This document shows, one piece after another, positions 1-7,251 of a DNA stretch of 64,000 bases. The stretch is from contig CAMWLS010000005.1 in assembly GCA_947175205.1 (NCBI GenBank), forward strand, positions 5,209 through 69,208, given 5' to 3'. Source of the stretch: an uncultured Porphyromonadaceae bacterium (lineage in GTDB: Bacteria > Bacteroidota > Bacteroidia > Bacteroidales > Muribaculaceae). Made by a program: the position numbers and the translations under genes. The notes below the pieces were generated by a model. The model was not told where the DNA came from. It searched no databases and was given only the letters and a program-made list of their open reading frames with translations. Numbering within the stretch: position 1 is the stretch's first letter; every line of letters begins with the position of its first letter.

Positions 1-1631
1 ATGGAGTAAAGAATAATAAAGGTGGTTATAATTACCAGTGCCGGCCCCATATCGCTCAGGACCTTAAGATAGAGGACCATCAGTACCAGCATACAGCCCA
101 GCACACCTCCCACGGTAGCAAGGTGCCGCTTCCATGACCACGAAGTAAGTCTCTCAGAGAACTGCTGCATCTTAGGCGCATTGGCCGCAAAGAAGGTTGC
201 CATAAAGATGACTATCAGATACTTGGACACCTCACTGGGCTGAAAGCCCCACAGATTCACCTTGGCATCGCTACCTTCGGGACCATAGCCGAATATGGCA
301 AGGAGCGCTATCAGAGCAAGAGCCAGGCACAGGAAACCTATACCCGCGGGAGTTTTCACACCCAACCGCTGGAACAGACGCGTCACGGGAGCAAAAAGCC
401 CCATTACGGGACGGGTTACCGCCCTGGCACCCTGACGCACAAAATCAAATTCCAGCACGCCGCCCTGCAGGCGGGAAGTACCGTTGGACATCTTTACAAA
501 ATTCACCATTGATACCCCCGTCATGGCCACAAGGCCCAGACCCAGGCCATATGCCATGGTAAGACCGTTTAAACTGTCATTAAGCGCATCAGGAATGGAG
601 AACATGGCCAGCAGCATAATTGCTGTAAGTGCCATGATAACCAGCATTATAACCTTATCAGCCTTACGCCCCAGATTGCGGTCTGTACGGAACACTGCAT
701 AGAAAGCAAGTACCCAACCGGCCAGAAAAATTATGATGGCAATATTCACGGAACGTAAAAAGTCAGCGGGCGTACGCACCAGCAGGGCATCATCCTCTTT
801 AATCCTTCTGTATGTGGGTGTGTCAAAGGCTGTAATTGTCAGAGGTCTTTCCCGGAAAGTGTACTCTGCATCACCCTCTAAGACTCCACCTACGGTTCCA
901 CGAGAACTTCCATATTCTTTATTGGGCCGCACGGGTAGGACGCTGTAACTTAATCCGGGCTGCACCTTAAAACAGACTTCACCATTGGCATCCGTCATAG
1001 CCAGGGCCACAAGGCTGTCCACAGTTGCCGGTGCATTTACAAGCTGGGCGGTCCGTCCGCTATGAACGGTATCATATGCATGCATCATAAGGCGCACAAC
1101 AGTCCCGGATACAGGTTTCCCGGAATTCTTATTTCTTCCCTCGCTGTCATTAGCCTCTTTAATATTTACTTTTATTGTTGCGGAACCTGTTCCGGCTTCA
1201 GAGGGCAGGACCTGTCCACTTTTATATATTTCTTCTATTTCCGGAGTAAGGCCCAGTGCGCTGTTTGTCACCTGGACACGATATTTTAGACCCTCGCCGG
1301 CCAGGGCCATAACTGAATCTGCATTAAGCTTGAACGCTTTCATATTCAGCGCGCCCAGATGCGTAAGCTCCCCCTGTTTCTTCATCACACTAATAAAGTG
1401 TTCCGCAATATAGCGGCTGTCACGGGGATTGCTTACATAGTCTCCCATAAGGAGCAGCGCACTCAGTGAATCCACATTCATATCCGGACTCAAAACCAGA
1501 GAATAGCCCGCATTCATGCTTTCTCTGGCTCTGTCCAGACGCTCCGCAACATTATGTTTAAGCGCAAGCATGCCTGCCACAAACATGGCGCATACCAGCA
1601 GAAAGCCTATTATGTCTTTAATCTTTCTCAT
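1..1631 (-). CDS. FtsW/RodA/SpoVE (SEDS) family protein with long N-terminal extension; 3' end runs off the window
   Basis: Translated by hand: ATG at 1631, open for 543 codons to the window edge. SEDS motifs GFQPSEVSKY (~220-245) and SDMGPALV near the edge, with multiple TM helices. Not in the ORF track because there is no stop codon in the window. Confidence 0.85.
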   Translation of the reverse strand, partial: MRKIKDIIGFLLVCAMFVAGMLALKHNVAERLDRARESMNAGYSLVLSPDMNVDSLSALLLMGDYVSNPRDSRYIAEHFISVMKKQGELTHLGALNMKAFKLNADSVMALAGEGLKYRVQVTNSALGLTPEIEEIYKSGQVLPSEAGTGSATIKVNIKEANDSEGRNKNSGKPVSGTVVRLMMHAYDTVHSGRTAQLVNAPATVDSLVALAMTDANGEVCFKVQPGLSYSVLPVRPNKEYGSSRGTVGGVLEGDAEYTFRERPLTITAFDTPTYRRIKEDDALLVRTPADFLRSVNIAIIIFLAGWVLAFYAVFRTDRNLGRKADKVIMLVIMALTAIMLLAMFSIPDALNDSLNGLTMAYGLGLGLVAMTGVSMVNFVKMSNGTSRLQGGVLEFDFVRQGARAVTRPVMGLFAPVTRLFQRLGVKTPAGIGFLCLALALIALLAIFGYGPEGSDAKVNLWGFQPSEVSKYLIVIFMATFFAANAPKMQQFSERLTSWSWKRHLATVGGVLGCMLVLMVLYLKVLSDMGPALVIITTFIILYS

Positions 1632-1638
1632 GGCTTTT

Positions 1639-2892
1639 TCAGTTTCCTGTGGAACCCTGCTGCTCCTCTACAGGAGAAGTTACTGACTGATCCGCCGCTT
1701 TATCGCTATGGGCAGGCAGCCCTTCATCCATGCGCAAAACTCTGTCCTCAAGCTCATGGACCGCCGCAGATGCTTTTTCAAGCTGTACGCGCAGGGTGTC
1801 ACGTTCTTTCACCAGTCTCTGCATTACTTCCTTATTAGCTGAGGCTTCATCTGCTGCATCCGTATTTCTGAGGACACCTGACCCCAGGATATACCCTATC
1901 CCGGCACCGGCTATGAGTGCTATGGATACAGCTGTTACCAGCCTTCCCGTAGTATGTCCTCCGGAATTATGCCGGCTCATCAGCGCCGGGTCATCAGTCA
2001 TTGCAGCCGGATCTTCATCAGATACATCTTCCTCAGGAAAGCCTCCTCTGATAACTGCAACACTGCGTTTCTCAGCCTTTACGGGGCGCACCACACCTCC
2101 GGTCTTAACGGGTTCTTGTGAAAGCAGAGAGCTCTCTGATGCGGTTTCCACGTTCAGAATCACCACGGTCACATTATCCTTTGCGCCGTGCTCCAAGGTA
2201 GCGGCTATGAGTGCATCCGCACAGTCCGCGGCGCTCCGGCCCTCTTTAAGCTCTGCACTTATCAGTTTACTGTTTAGCACATCACTTAACCCGTCTGAGC
2301 AGAAAACAAACTTACAGCTGCCGGTGATGGGGAAAATGGCACTTTCAATGAAATGAGCGTCATCAGGATAATGATACTCCTCTCCCAGTGAGCGACTGAT
2401 CATATTCCTCTGCGGGTGGGCCATGGCCTCCGCCTCAGTTATGGTGCCCTGATCCTCCATATAGCCCACCACTGAGTGGTCATGGGAAAGTTTTGTCAGC
2501 ACACCGTTCTGATAACGGTACAGCCTGCTGTCACCCACATGGGCCATTGTCAGAGTACCTGACTTAAGGTCCAACAGTCCGGCAGTGAGTACGCAACCCA
2601 TGGAAGACAGGCGCGGTTCAGCCTGACGGCGGTCTACAATTGCATTATTTGCCGCCGCCACAGCACTACGCAGGCGCAGTGCGTGATTACCTTCCTGGAC
2701 TTCTGCAAGGAAATCCATTATGGTATTCCTGGCAATCTCCGCGGCCACCTCACCGCCTTCATATCCTCCTATGCCGTCTATCGCCACACAGAGCACTGCG
2801 CTCTCATCATCCACATAGGTTGCAAGAAAAGCGTCTTCGTTATTGCTGCGCACGCTACCTACATCCGTAGCGCCGTAAAAGTCTATTTTCAT
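1639..2892 (-). CDS. PP2C/PPM-family Ser/Thr protein phosphatase with C-terminal TM helix and extracytoplasmic coiled coil (PstP-like)
   Basis: Motifs NEDA, DGIGG, HVGDSRLY, SDGL, DNVT; TM segment LVTAVSIALIAGAGIGYILG. Confidence 0.92.
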   Translation of the reverse strand: MKIDFYGATDVGSVRSNNEDAFLATYVDDESAVLCVAIDGIGGYEGGEVAAEIARNTIMDFLAEVQEGNHALRLRSAVAAANNAIVDRRQAEPRLSSMGCVLTAGLLDLKSGTLTMAHVGDSRLYRYQNGVLTKLSHDHSVVGYMEDQGTITEAEAMAHPQRNMISRSLGEEYHYPDDAHFIESAIFPITGSCKFVFCSDGLSDVLNSKLISAELKEGRSAADCADALIAATLEHGAKDNVTVVILNVETASESSLLSQEPVKTGGVVRPVKAEKRSVAVIRGGFPEEDVSDEDPAAMTDDPALMSRHNSGGHTTGRLVTAVSIALIAGAGIGYILGSGVLRNTDAADEASANKEVMQRLVKERDTLRVQLEKASAAVHELEDRVLRMDEGLPAHSDKAADQSVTSPVEEQQGSTGN

Positions 2893-2970
2893 TTAGGCAA
2901 AGAAGTAAAATGATGAATTAAAAGGTATATAACCAGCACACATAACGCGCATAGAAAAATAAAATTCATG

Positions 2971-3984
2971 TTACTTTACAGTAAAAATCAGCTGAACGCT
3001 GTCACCCAGCATAATGGTGGAGTTATTATACAGTTCATATCTCTTAGACGGGTCAGGTTCATAAAGCCGTTCATTAAGCCTGATAGGGCCATAGGCCGTT
3101 ATGGAGTAGCGGCCGTTATTCTCAAGTTTGATAACAGCATGAGGGCTCAGCAGGTCAGGAACATTAACCCTCACTGCACGCCCTTCTGCTGTAGCACGCG
3201 GGGGTGCTGACTGACCGTGAATCTCCACACCTGACGGCTGCATGCGGAATGACCTGATTTCCGTACCGTCAGCTGCCAGCATATGCCCCAGTACTGCCTT
3301 CAGCCGAGGGCCTATGGGAGCCGTGGTAGGATTCGCATTAATCTGGTGTGTGTTAGCTGATACATCTGAACCCGTGCGTCCCACACTGCTGAAATTCACA
3401 ATGGGAATTCTGAACTGGTCTTTATTTATTGTCACCACCCCTGGGAAAGCGGCCATATTAAGACCGTTAGGGAGGGTGATCTGAGAGTTTTTGGTACGCA
3501 CGGTGGTAACCTGACGTCCCGCTCCCTCTGCTGATGCCGGTACTGACGGGTCCTGAGAGTAAAGTTTCATAAGGACCACTGGGTCAGCCCGTCCCGGAAC
3601 AGCAACACCCATGTCCTCAGGCAGCTCTACGTCATCACCTATACAGATGAAATGCAGGAACCAGTTATAAGCATGTGGTTTATAGGCGGGATAGCGGGGC
3701 AGAAACTCTGACACCACCTCATTAAATCCCTGTATGATTTCCTGAACGGACATGGGGAAAGCCTCTGACTGCTCAGCATAATCCTCCTGGTTCATCAGGA
3801 CTGTGAATGAGGTTGGAAACAGTAAGCCACGCTTGGTGGTCTGGCGCTTGAGTTCATTCCTGAAGTTATCCACTATCAGTTCTATAAACTCACCGCGGGT
3901 CATGGAAATGACCGGTCCTGCCGGAGGCACGGCGGAAGGAGTGTTGTCTTCACCCAAAAATATCTTTTTCAGTTTAGCTAACAT
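2971..3984 (-). CDS. FhaA-like protein: DUF3662-like N-terminal domain plus degenerate C-terminal FHA-like domain
   Basis: N-terminal LFPTSFTVLMNQEDY resembles the FhaA N-domain; C-terminal LLSPHAVI...TIMLGDSVQLIF resembles the FHA fold; adjacent to the PP2C gene. Confidence 0.6.
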   Translation of the reverse strand: MLAKLKKIFLGEDNTPSAVPPAGPVISMTRGEFIELIVDNFRNELKRQTTKRGLLFPTSFTVLMNQEDYAEQSEAFPMSVQEIIQGFNEVVSEFLPRYPAYKPHAYNWFLHFICIGDDVELPEDMGVAVPGRADPVVLMKLYSQDPSVPASAEGAGRQVTTVRTKNSQITLPNGLNMAAFPGVVTINKDQFRIPIVNFSSVGRTGSDVSANTHQINANPTTAPIGPRLKAVLGHMLAADGTEIRSFRMQPSGVEIHGQSAPPRATAEGRAVRVNVPDLLSPHAVIKLENNGRYSITAYGPIRLNERLYEPDPSKRYELYNNSTIMLGDSVQLIFTVK

Positions 3985-4002: not shown

Positions 4003-4473
4003 CTAAAACTGTTTCTTTAACTCATATCTCCACACTCTGCCATCCGGTGAGGTATAACTCCACGTCATGACTTTATCAGACATGGACAGTTTCTGGAGAT
4101 GAAGTATGGTGTTTTGCTCCCAGCCCAGCCACTCTGGTGCGGCATAGATGGCGGTACCTGGGGCATATTTATCATCGCTGTGCGTGAAATTCAGCAGGAA
4201 CTGTTCTTCTGTTTCTTCCCACGTACCTATACCTGAATCCATACTGAAGGGCTGGTCAGGAGCCTGGAGCCGGCTAACCTTGATGATATTATTCTGAAAC
4301 TGAATAACGGTGGGATGCGTCTCCACATCCATCTTTTCACCGTCACAGCTCATACTTACAAGATTCCATGTGCCAAAAAGCGCACCTATATCGCCGTCAT
4401 TATGATTACTCACACAGGCGCTCAGAAGCATCATCAGCGCAGTGCCAAGCATCAGTGTTATATTCTTTCTCAT
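4003..4473 (-). CDS. Lipocalin-like domain lipoprotein
   Basis: Lipobox LLSAC; LFGTWNLVSM resembles the lipocalin GxW motif; start moved to the ATG at 4473. Confidence 0.7.
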   Translation of the reverse strand: MRKNITLMLGTALMMLLSACVSNHNDGDIGALFGTWNLVSMSCDGEKMDVETHPTVIQFQNNIIKVSRLQAPDQPFSMDSGIGTWEETEEQFLLNFTHSDDKYAPGTAIYAAPEWLGWEQNTILHLQKLSMSDKVMTWSYTSPDGRVWRYELKKQF

Positions 4474-4480
4474 TTTCAGT

Positions 4481-6010
4481 TTACTTGCGTTTAGGTGAGA
4501 ATACACCGTTATAACTTACTGTCAGAAGTGCACCTGCATGACTCTTCTCCCTGAGTTTACCCCAGTCCTGAGCCAGTGTGATGCTTGCTCCCAGACCCTT
4601 AAGGTAACGCCCTGCATCATATTTAACTTTCAGCATGGCGGCATTCCCCTCCACAGACCGGTAAATGGGATGGCGTCCGTCACCATATGCTTTTTCATAT
4701 TCATACTTTACCACATACTCCAGTTCAGGAAGTATATGTCCCTTGACTGCTATATGACAGCCTCTGGCGCGCGTATGCATGAACGCAGGCTGACCGTTAA
4801 GGTTATAGTACGGAGCTACAAGGAAAGGCGTACCAAGTGCCAGGCCATAATTACTGAAAGGACCGTATACGTCATTATTATAATAATTGTCCGCGCCTGA
4901 AGCATGAGAGGTGATGGTGGTGCCGGGGTTATCAGCCGGAGCCCAGTGCAGAGGACCGCTCTGATTGGTAAAGTCAAGATACTCAGCAACCACGGCGGTA
5001 ACTGGTCCGCGCTCCGCCGCTCTCCATTCCAGACCGTATAGACCGTCCCAGCCGTTCAGACGTCCTATCCCTGAGCCGTCTTCCCACGGCCCCTCAAAAT
5101 AAGCCGCAAGGTGTCCAAAGTTGTGAGGAAGCTCATAATCAGCCCTGAAATTCCAACTTCCAAGAGTACTTCCGGTATAATAACTCCCGTCATTACCCTC
5201 GTGAGGGAAAAACATCTTCCACACATCAGCAAACTTAAATCCGCGCACCTGTGTCTGTATCACCTCCCCGTTCCTGAACCAAATGCTCTGACCGCCGAAC
5301 AGTCCGGCAGTCTGCATGCCTATGGTGGCATAAAAACGCTTATGCGGATTACTCCTGAAGTAGCAATACTTATATGTATAATACCTGTCAGTGGCAAGTA
5401 CCCAGTCATAATGATTAGCCTGCTGCCGCTGATACTCGCTGTCCATCATCTTACCATAAAATATGTCGCCGGCTATCTGCACCCAGCCATTGGTAAAAGG
5501 GATATTCTGGAAGGTGTTAAAACCAAGACTTACTCCCGGTATAGGTGCAGCGTTATTGCTGTATATCAAGTCTCCGGAGGATAGCTCAGGGTTTACTATC
5601 ATGCCGCATCGCTGACGCATACCCAGCTCTAACTGTACGGCTCTGTAGCGTACCTGACCATATAGCTGCTGCATGTGTACAGCCTTGGGAGTGGCGCTGA
5701 CCGCGTCAGTCAGCGTCTGTGTCTGAGGGCTATAATGCATGTACGTAACGCCGTGACGGTAACCCGTGAAAAAATCCGCACCGGCGCCCCAGCTCCACAG
5801 TCCGGAAGAGTCTATTTTCTTCTCTGCGCTCAGGTCCAGCAACGCTGTTGCAGAGGATGCCGTGCGTCCGTACTGGCCGGACCCCATGAGCGAAGGCGCA
5901 AACGACCCTCCGCTGCCCCCGGCAAAAATCTCGGCCTTATAGTCTATCTCTATGGCTGCAGCGCCGGTAACAGCAGCTGTCAACAAACACAGTGAAATAA
6001 GTTTTCTCAT
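4481..6010 (-). CDS. Capsule assembly Wzi-family outer-membrane beta-barrel protein
   Basis: Signal peptide MRKLISLCLLTAAV; SSGDLIYSNNAAPIPG, DNYYNN and GTPF motifs; start refined to 6010. Confidence 0.75.
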   Translation of the reverse strand: MRKLISLCLLTAAVTGAAAIEIDYKAEIFAGGSGGSFAPSLMGSGQYGRTASSATALLDLSAEKKIDSSGLWSWGAGADFFTGYRHGVTYMHYSPQTQTLTDAVSATPKAVHMQQLYGQVRYRAVQLELGMRQRCGMIVNPELSSGDLIYSNNAAPIPGVSLGFNTFQNIPFTNGWVQIAGDIFYGKMMDSEYQRQQANHYDWVLATDRYYTYKYCYFRSNPHKRFYATIGMQTAGLFGGQSIWFRNGEVIQTQVRGFKFADVWKMFFPHEGNDGSYYTGSTLGSWNFRADYELPHNFGHLAAYFEGPWEDGSGIGRLNGWDGLYGLEWRAAERGPVTAVVAEYLDFTNQSGPLHWAPADNPGTTITSHASGADNYYNNDVYGPFSNYGLALGTPFLVAPYYNLNGQPAFMHTRARGCHIAVKGHILPELEYVVKYEYEKAYGDGRHPIYRSVEGNAAMLKVKYDAGRYLKGLGASITLAQDWGKLREKSHAGALLTVSYNGVFSPKRK

Positions 6011-7251
6011 ATCATGGATGTTTCTCGTGGGCCCAAAGTCAGCAGAGAACACTCACAGAGCGTCTGCGCACACTGACGCAGTTCTTCAGGTCCCACATCT
6101 TTAATTCTTCTCTCTATCTCTGAGGGGGTGAGAGAACGCCCGCTCATCAGTGTGGCGCGTGCTATACCTAATATACGGCTCTCACGATTCTCATAGGCCA
6201 CTTTCAGCTGACCCAGATACTGCTTCTTATACATTTCAAGGGTGCGTGATGACAGTGAGCTATCTGCCATATGCTCCAGCTGTTGCTTTACCAGCGAGGC
6301 ACACACGGCATTATCAGCAGGGTCACAGCCGTAGTATACCGTAAAAAGGCCGGTATCAGAAAGCAGCGCGGTGGAAGCTTCCACAGTGTACACCAGTCCA
6401 CGGCGCTCACGCAATGCCACATTGAGCAGGGAATTCATACCCGGACCGCCCAGAATATTGGTCAGAAGAGCCTGAGCATAACGCGTTTCAGAGTGCATGC
6501 CGCCGGTGAGTACACCCATCACAGTGTGTGCCTGATGGGAGTCTATCTCCTTAAGCTTTGAAAAAGGCGCAGCGGACACGGGAGCACACTCCTCCTGCAC
6601 CGGAGCTGAGCCCTCAAGTGGGCTGAAAGTCTTTTCCACGGCGGCAAACACACGGGAGGCACTCATACTGCCGGCGTAGAACACCACCATATTGGAGGGC
6701 CTGTACCAGTGCTGAAGGTACTCACAGCAGACCTCAGGGGTAAAGCCACGTAGCAGGTGCGCCTCACCTAAAATATTATGGCTCAAGGGTGTACCGGCGT
6801 AAATAAGCTCCTCAAAATCATCATACACGGCCTCTGACGGGCTGTCAAGGTAAGAGTTTATCTCATCAGCCACAACCTCACGCTCCTTGCGCAGCTCGCT
6901 CTCCGGAAAGCGCGAATGCATTATAAGGTCAGCCACAAGGTCAAGTGCACGCGCGGGAGAGCTGCCGGGGAACACAGTGTAGACCACCGTCTCTTCCTTT
7001 GTGGTATAGGCATTTAGCTCACCGCCCACACGCTCCATGCGGTTTATGATATGCCAGGCGCTTCGTGAGGTGGTACCCTTGAAGAGGGTGTGCTCCACAA
7101 AGTGCGCAAGACCGTAGTAATCAGGCGTTTCATTGCGGCTACCTACCCTTGTGGCCACACCGAAGAAGCCTGCTGCCGCTCCGGGAAGGAGCAGGTGAAC
7201 CATACGTAAACCGTTGGCACTCAGAGCATATTCTACTTTTGGGGCTTTCAT
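6007..7251 (-). CDS. M16 family zinc peptidase (pitrilysin-like)
   Basis: GLAHFVEH (HxxEH), LNAYT, LRERRGLVY. Confidence 0.93.
   Translation of the reverse strand: MKAPKVEYALSANGLRMVHLLLPGAAAGFFGVATRVGSRNETPDYYGLAHFVEHTLFKGTTSRSAWHIINRMERVGGELNAYTTKEETVVYTVFPGSSPARALDLVADLIMHSRFPESELRKEREVVADEINSYLDSPSEAVYDDFEELIYAGTPLSHNILGEAHLLRGFTPEVCCEYLQHWYRPSNMVVFYAGSMSASRVFAAVEKTFSPLEGSAPVQEECAPVSAAPFSKLKEIDSHQAHTVMGVLTGGMHSETRYAQALLTNILGGPGMNSLLNVALRERRGLVYTVEASTALLSDTGLFTVYYGCDPADNAVCASLVKQQLEHMADSSLSSRTLEMYKKQYLGQLKVAYENRESRILGIARATLMSGRSLTPSEIERRIKDVGPEELRQCAQTLCECSLLTLGPRETSMI

Follow-up and report, generated by a model that had tools for sequence, protein, structure and literature searches.

The stretch analyzed here, hereafter the window, is 64,000 nucleotides (nt) long and corresponds to contig C5:5209–69208 of an uncultured Bacteroidales bacterium of the family Muribaculaceae (assembly GCA_947175205.1, contig CAMWLS010000005.1), whose genome of 2.15 Mb is 98.7% complete. 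At its left edge lies a minus-strand locus that encodes an FhaA-like adaptor, a membrane PP2C phosphatase and the beginning of a SEDS-type peptidoglycan synthase, and a further 5.2 kb of contig is present leftward. Taken over its whole length, the locus probably forms a self-contained, phosphorylation-controlled accessory peptidoglycan synthase. It contains the following features, given with their lengths in amino acids (aa); ORF denotes an open reading frame and PBP a penicillin-binding protein.

Window 2971–3984, minus strand: gene A, FhaA-like protein, 337 aa.
Window 2889–2969, minus strand: micro-ORF, 26 aa.
Window 1639–2892, minus strand: gene B, membrane PP2C phosphatase, 417 aa.
Contig C5:2538–6839, minus strand: gene C, fusion of SEDS and class B PBP, 1433 aa; its first 543 residues correspond to window 3–1631.
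Contig C5:1378–2535, minus strand: gene D, Hanks Ser/Thr kinase, 385 aa, wholly left of the window.
Contig C5:458–1378, minus strand: gene E, FHA protein, 306 aa, wholly left of the window.

Read 5´ to 3´ on the minus strand, the order is gene A, micro-ORF, gene B, gene C, gene D and gene E, and a convergent DMT_6 transporter gene bounds the unit past gene E. The micro-ORF and gene B share an ATGA overlap, 7 nt (bases 1632–1638) separate the gene B stop from the gene C start, 2 nt follow at the next junction, and the start of gene E overlaps the stop of the kinase gene by 1 nt. Because of this tight spacing, the arrangement fits a single predicted operon of six genes. A preliminary description, made from the window alone, had reported three co-oriented ORFs at 2971–3984, 1639–2892 and 3–1631 (the last open at the window edge) and a distance of 7 nt between the phosphatase and SEDS genes; the coordinates are correct and the distance is exact. 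It had also predicted a kinase gene and a PBP gene past the left edge, and both are there: the kinase matches PF00069 at 129 bits and the PBP, which is fused to the SEDS gene, matches PF00905. A feature missed in that description is the 78-nt stretch between the first two genes, which is a conserved ORF of 26 codons and not a spacer.

The output component of the locus is gene C. The full gene matches PF01098 (111.7 bits) and PF00905 (87.9 bits) within one ORF, while its in-window part alone matches PF01098 at only 20.6 bits, which is below the cut-off. The earlier assignment as a SEDS protein is thus correct for the identity of the domain but covers merely the first 543 of 1433 residues, and the class B PBP (bPBP) is part of the same chain. 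Hydropathy outlines a first transmembrane helix (TM0, residues 6–24), a periplasmic region (25–294), a return transmembrane (TM) helix (295–313), the SEDS domain (~328–780) and an anchor TM helix (806–824), after which a pedestal-like region leads to the transpeptidase domain (1060–1400) in the periplasm. The two SEDS stretches reported by Pfam are the halves of one domain and cover profile positions 16–166 and 204–353. The T682-D683 pair in the SEDS loop is invariant in 49/49 orthologues, and we take D683 to be the catalytic Asp of the large extracellular loop, by analogy with RodA and FtsW. The transpeptidase motifs S1123-T-A-K1126 (SxxK), S1177-S-N1179 (SxN) and K1349-T-G (KTG) are likewise invariant in all 49. 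The closest matches in the PDB are FtsW and RodA, from which gene C is about equidistant. The SEDS domain and the PBP are also joined in one chain in the 49 orthologues, and, among the 606 protein clusters that match the SEDS-PBP part, the best 120 are all giant fusions.

The pedestal domains PBP_dimer (PF03717) and PBPA_dimer (PF21922) have no Pfam match in gene C. About 230 conserved residues lie between the anchor TM helix and the transpeptidase domain, and they contain the motifs AGDIMDRNG and RRYYPFG; these GxIxDRNG-like and RxYPxG-like motifs are presumably class B signatures. In the N-terminal periplasmic region, residues ~165–260 show weak Ig-like, CarboxypepD_reg and pilin-like matches, and this part of the protein is a putative Ig-like or CarboxypepD_reg-like β-sandwich carried on an extra TM hairpin. 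Residues 377–428 (window ~348–503, minus strand) form a loop of about 50 residues between SEDS helices that is predicted to be cytoplasmic; in the alignment it is partly present in one relative and missing from two others. This loop is possibly a lineage-specific regulatory or phospho-acceptor element.

The housekeeping synthases are encoded elsewhere in the genome: a PBP2-RodA pair on contig 18, a class A PBP on contig 37, and FtsI and FtsW on one stretch of contig 27, the last consistent with a division cluster. The fused synthase is therefore a third, accessory peptidoglycan synthase, which agrees with the accessory polymerase proposed in the preliminary description.

Gene B matches PF13672 (49.6 bits), PF00481 (36 bits) and the NCBIfam Stp1/IreP model (189 bits). 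It consists of a cytoplasmic catalytic domain (residues 1–250), a linker, one hydrophobic helix (318–336) and a periplasmic tail of ~80 residues that is probably helical, so that the earlier reading of a PP2C phosphatase with one TM helix is borne out. The nearest solved structures in the PDB are cyanobacterial tPphA (129 bits) and Mycobacterium tuberculosis PstP (111 bits). The metal-binding Asp residues of PP2C are invariant in 40 orthologues, and a TM helix is predicted after the catalytic domain in 40/40. We assign gene B as a PstP-like membrane PP2C Ser/Thr phosphatase. In five of the best 120 protein clusters mentioned above, metagenomic proteins of 1684–1796 aa (P0195, P0196, P0206, P0208 and P0257), a PP2C is fused to the N-terminus of the synthase in the order PP2C catalytic domain, TM helix, periplasmic domain, SEDS and bPBP. 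In P0208 (1684 aa), which occurs on 10 contigs, PP2C residues 1–267 are joined to TM0 of the synthase.

The product of gene A is a cytoplasmic FhaA-like adaptor. In the AlphaFold model, which was built on its homologues and has a predicted local distance difference test (pLDDT) value of 83, an N-terminal α/β domain (~30–140) and a C-terminal FHA fold (225–337) are connected by a disordered linker (150–222). On its own, gene A has no Pfam or NCBIfam match, and an FHA sequence hidden Markov model gives only 12.8 bits. Foldseek aligns its C-terminus with more than 50 FHA structures in the PDB at probability 1.00, with a TM-score of up to 0.76 on the target. The N-terminal domain was modeled separately (pLDDT 87), and its top-probability Foldseek match among the matches listed is 2LC0, the N-terminal domain of M. 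tuberculosis FhaA (0.84). The corresponding family PF12401 matches weakly in 16/87 gene A family members (best E 0.0019); its sole match genome-wide, at 12.4 bits and below the cut-off, falls in gene A, and a control search was above the cut-off in Corynebacterium only. Of the DUF3662+FHA-like identity given to 2971–3984 in the preliminary description, the FHA part is thus well founded and the N-terminal part is probable. An exhaustive search retrieved about 155 representative homologues. Almost all are of comparable length, and none reaches FhaA-level similarity in sequence.

At the phosphothreonine site of gene A, Gly257, Ser280, His282 and Asn304 are kept, and the canonical phosphate-binding Arg is replaced by Gln258 (GQ, not GR); this position is R or K in 27/38 family members. 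The linker contains a conserved hydroxyl pair, with T or S at position 161 in 86/87 members and S or T at position 167 in 83/87, and we propose T161/S167 as a candidate phospho-acceptor. A profile-profile comparison of gene A with gene E gives a match confined to the FHA part (E 0.0013), so the two are not simple paralogues.

Gene E itself scores 18.5 bits with PF00498, just under the cut-off, and 25/30 of its orthologues match this family (best E 2.2e-13). It retains the canonical GR...SRxH residues and has no TM helix, and we assign its family as bona fide FHA; the N-terminal part of the protein yields only weak sequence matches. Genes A and E are the only FHA-like matches genome-wide. In three related loci (L032, L036 and L065), the gene E homologue is longer (462–465 aa) and lies downstream of the kinase gene, with ~3 kb of other genes in between.

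The kinase encoded by gene D keeps the Hanks motifs (K36, H169-N-D171...N176, D190-F-G and A215-P-E) with a non-RD catalytic loop, HNDLHSNN, in which His takes the place of the usual Lys. Hydropathy predicts no TM helix, Pfam finds no PASTA domain, and no PDB entry matches at E≤1e-20. The HND[LI]HSxN loop, DFG and APE are conserved in 49 kinase orthologues, 17 of which have Arg at the position aligned to the β3 Lys, and the kinases of the module (contig C5:1378–2535 and the orthologues in L024–L073) constitute a distinct non-RD family. Their C-terminal parts are highly variable and comprise a single TM helix, several TM helices, Big_2, TPM, FGE-sulfatase, or none of these. TM segments are predicted in most orthologues. 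Among five scanned with Pfam, the ectodomains are Big_2, TPM or FGE-sulfatase, or are not detected, and PASTA is absent from all five. In the sister species, an identical locus encodes the kinase in the same short soluble form. Relative to most orthologues, gene D has lost its membrane anchor and its ectodomain, and the input signal here would therefore have to be cytoplasmic or be relayed by a partner. Seven loci (L030, L038, L040, L042, L043, L067 and L068) have two or three kinase paralogues beside the module, in tandem in L030, and L040 has a second PP2C too. In another genome, G035, a separate orthologous kinase (L023, on contig G035:C30) is fused to an FGE-sulfatase domain.

The micro-ORF between genes A and B encodes MNFIFLCALCVLVIYLLIHHFTSLPK, a peptide of 26 aa with a single hydrophobic helix and then, at the C-terminus, the conserved motif HFxx[LY]P[KR]; its TGA stop overlaps the ATG of the PP2C gene. 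About 24 related loci, those in which A and B are at least 79 nt apart, have an equivalent micro-ORF in the gap. The strict pattern HFxx[LYFIM]P[KR] after a hydrophobic stretch occurs in 20 loci and in the sister species, once per locus and in each case between A and B. Compared with the sister species, 10/81 nt differ, nine of them at third codon positions, which leaves one amino-acid change. Loci with the order C-D-E-A-B have no counterpart, and the peptide, 26–32 residues long, accompanies the module in one common gene arrangement. Because the motif is conserved at a fixed position and the changes relative to the sister species are mostly at third codon positions, we regard the micro-ORF as a real sixth gene of the operon. 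Its product probably serves the synthase as a small subunit or regulator in the membrane. SidA and DidA of Caulobacter are small membrane regulators of SEDS/bPBP complexes, and by description the micro-peptide shares with them a length of about 30 residues, a single TM helix and a gene beside that of a wall synthase.

Species-representative genomes were scanned with the synthase alignment for related loci. The scan yielded 50 loci, all from Bacteroidales and mostly from gut or rumen metagenome-assembled genomes, which are labeled Muribaculaceae, Prevotellaceae, Bacteroidaceae, Dysgonamonadaceae, Barnesiella and Sodaliphilus. Almost all of the 50 have the five proteins encoded in one orientation, in the order A-B-C-(D,E) or C-D-E-A-B, and the synthase is always accompanied by genes for a Hanks kinase, a membrane PP2C and two FHA-type proteins, one of which is FhaA-like. 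The complete module is also present in three genomes of two further families from other Bacteroidia orders, with fusions of 1355–1383 aa. Conservation of the gene order in relatives, on which the preliminary description had made its reading depend, therefore extends to all of these loci with the order permuted. In G035, locus L021 (G035:C1:24000–38000) has a kinase-FHA-FhaA-like-PP2C set, and the 14 kb examined contain no fused synthase. The sister species carries an identical locus in the same chromosomal context, and the dN/dS ratios relative to it are 0.055 for A, 0.08 for B, 0.053 for C, 0.035 for D and 0.10 for E; dS is near saturation, and the ratios are still clearly far below 1. These values indicate that all the genes are under purifying selection. 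Within the family of the window, 5/101 sampled genomes are carriers, and elsewhere in the order none of 400 is. The profile recovered 3/4 known positives; the remaining one has its contig broken at the synthase gene.

This spread also bears on where the cluster came from. A recent horizontal gain of an actinobacterial fhaA-pknB locus, with true orthologues of FhaA, PstP, RodA, PbpA and PknB, would account for the same protein types in a partly similar order, and for a FhaA_N-like fold that is otherwise typical of Actinobacteria, as the Corynebacterium-only control suggests. We consider such a transfer very improbable. None of the ~155 gene A homologues approaches FhaA in sequence, the PP2C scores no better with PstP (111 bits) than with tPphA (129 bits), the kinase belongs to the non-RD type and lacks PASTA, and the SEDS-PBP is fused and has an extra periplasmic domain. 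Moreover, the members of the module are 30–40% identical across several Bacteroidia orders, which indicates that the module has been in the phylum for a long time. The likeness to Actinobacteria lies deep, in the architecture, and does not stem from a recent transfer.

The patchy, accessory distribution would also suit an anti-phage or conflict system, in which a defense kinase senses infection and the wall enzymes serve as effector or barrier. Gene D indeed scores 145 bits against the PD-T4-6 models of PADLOC and 124–140 bits against mad6. These scores equal those of the generic Pkinase and PknB models (129–130 bits) and therefore reflect the shared kinase fold. Neither the synthase nor either FHA protein has a PADLOC match, and the PP2C has one weak match to a candidate model (32.6 bits). 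Neither a nuclease nor a toxin nor an abortive effector is encoded at the locus; integrase and mobile-element genes were not noticed beside the module, the flanks not having been systematically annotated; and the sister species keeps it in the same chromosomal context. A role in defense is accordingly hard to credit.

The flanking genes were considered for membership in the module. Immediately upstream, at window 4003–6052 (minus strand), the gene for a Wzi-like protein of the outer membrane (PF14052, 62 bits) overlaps a gene for a lipocalin-like lipoprotein. The pair lies 18 nt from gene A and is conserved in 4/4 same-genus genomes; it is all that the locus has in common with these four (43–47% identity), and synteny stops there. 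The lipocalin-like, Wzi-like and M16 peptidase genes upstream were excluded from the module because they are its neighbors in 0/50 related loci.

For the module itself, we infer a mechanism in which the kinase writes, FHA proteins read, the PP2C erases and the synthase is the output, because of the actinobacterial precedent, the linkage that is kept through gene rearrangements and the fusions of PP2C to the synthase. The kinase would phosphorylate Thr residues on cytoplasmic parts of the module; candidate targets are T161/S167 in the gene A linker, loops on the cytoplasmic side of the synthase, and the juxtamembrane PP2C linker. The FHA proteins would read these marks and thereby recruit or release the synthase, and the membrane PP2C, which sits beside the synthase and is covalently fused to it in some relatives, would erase them. 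Under particular envelope conditions, this would turn on additional wall synthesis or wall repair.

Several findings weigh against this reading. The FhaA_N match of gene A is weak (TM-scores 0.40/0.44, Foldseek E 0.1, Pfam below the cut-off). In the gene A family, N or D usually occupies the position of the phosphate-binding Ser, and the site as a whole is degenerate; because of these residues and of Gln258 in place of Arg, the FHA domain of gene A may not bind phosphothreonine. Gene D has no sensor domain in this genome. The module is present in 0/400 sampled genomes elsewhere in the order, and its rarity means that it is dispensable for most Bacteroidales. Finally, gene D is the only strong Hanks-kinase match and gene B the best PP2C match genome-wide, with otherwise weak secondary matches, so the pair could have cell-wide targets.

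The last point leads to the alternative that the kinase, the phosphatase and the FHA proteins are a general, many-target Ser/Thr signaling system that is merely co-located with an unregulated accessory synthase. Mycobacterial PknB and PstP have many substrates (PMC6554272), and the set in G035 has no fused synthase within its 14-kb stretch. On the other hand, the linkage to the synthase outlasts permutation of the gene order in more than 50 loci, five protein clusters have the PP2C directly fused to the synthase, and genomes without the synthase fusion are also without the FhaA-like gene (0/400). General signaling next to an unregulated enzyme is therefore an improbable account, though a better one than recent transfer or phage defense, and we favor control of the synthase by phosphorylation.

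A more specific version of the phosphorylation-controlled synthase can be offered only tentatively. In it, the cassette would be a portable, single-chain "plug-in" wall synthase for diderms that brings its own phosphothreonine switch: the non-RD kinase would mark T161/S167, the canonical FHA protein would read the mark, the membrane PP2C and the 26-aa HFxxLPK peptide would be stoichiometric subunits of the synthase, and the periplasmic Ig-like domain would set where the enzyme sits with respect to the wall or outer membrane. Among gut Bacteroidales, envelope robustness (β-lactams, bile, osmotic stress) would then be tuned as lineages gain or lose the cassette.

SEDS-bPBP pairs are core wall-building machines of bacteria and a target of antibiotic development, and their activation is under active study. 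A SEDS-bPBP that occurs naturally as one chain, with its regulators encoded alongside, would suit biochemical and structural work on activation. The locus also shows that Gram-negative gut commensals possess the FHA/PP2C/kinase logic of Actinobacteria as an accessory module, which could influence cell shape and the tolerance of envelope stress in the microbiome.

Compared with known systems, the locus most resembles the actinobacterial fhaA-fhaB-pstP-rodA-pbpA-pknA-pknB operon (M. tuberculosis Rv0020c–Rv0014c), which ties these protein types to wall growth (PMC11898655, PMC6554272). In both, an FhaA-type adaptor (N-terminal α/β domain, disordered linker, C-terminal FHA) leads, and a single-TM PP2C, SEDS, a class B PBP and a Hanks kinase come after it; each also has a second FHA protein, and the genes are co-oriented and tightly packed. 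The single TM helix and extracytoplasmic tail of PstP are present in gene B, whereas the sequence similarity of the FhaA-like protein to FhaA is under family thresholds. The separate rodA and pbpA of Actinobacteria are replaced here by one chain of 1433 aa with a TM hairpin and a periplasmic Ig-like domain. In contrast to PknB, which has a TM helix and PASTA, the locus has a single non-RD kinase that lacks PASTA and also, in this genome, a TM helix. There is no equivalent of FhaB/FipA (TM and FHA); a 26-aa TM peptide without FHA occupies that position, and the second FHA protein, gene E, is soluble and lies at the 3´ end of the operon. Here the host, a diderm, has RodA/PBP2 and FtsW/FtsI as separate pairs besides, and the module occurs patchily, as an accessory, rather than universally. 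The label of an Actinobacteria-like cluster in the preliminary description therefore holds for the protein types and the architecture, and fails where it would imply a separate RodA and PbpA, an FhaB, PASTA domains or a recent transfer.

Among Firmicutes, PrkC/PrpC, StkP/PhpP and IreK/IreP likewise combine a Hanks kinase and a PP2C for cell-wall homeostasis, and gene B is most like Stp1/IreP (189 bits). The Firmicutes systems have a PASTA sensor, which is lacking here; instead, the operon encodes FHA readers together with the synthase itself, to which the phosphatase is sometimes fused.

The closest precedent for the synthase is in a survey of 117 SEDS-bPBP chimeras, termed "bifunctional class B" (PMC12516126, Microlife 2025). 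The part of the survey considered here describes glycosyltransferases (GTases) with outward-facing β-rich regions and includes one Bacteroidota species, Pedobacter ginsengisoli, whose 1341-aa chimera is flanked by Ser/Thr kinase and phosphatase genes and is called worth investigating; in that part, the kinase and the phosphatase alone are noted as its gene neighbors. The likeness to gene C comprises a giant chain of GTase and transpeptidase in Bacteroidota, the kinase and phosphatase flanks, canonical FtsW/FtsI and RodA/PBP2 alongside, and a pedestal domain undetected by Pfam. The Pedobacter protein, known here by its description, is said to have "two tandem GTase domains", whereas the two SEDS stretches of gene C are one domain. 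Full-text literature searches turned up no publication that deals with this module in Bacteroidales or with its FHA components, and the preliminary statement that no characterized example exists in Bacteroidales is experimentally true; yet the survey had already flagged a kinase- and phosphatase-flanked chimera in Bacteroidota, and the system is no longer unanticipated. What is new, relative to known loci with FHA, PP2C, SEDS, bPBP and kinase genes, is the fused synthase with its extra periplasmic domain, the PASTA-less non-RD kinase, the micro-peptide, and the accessory, patchy occurrence of the module in diderms.

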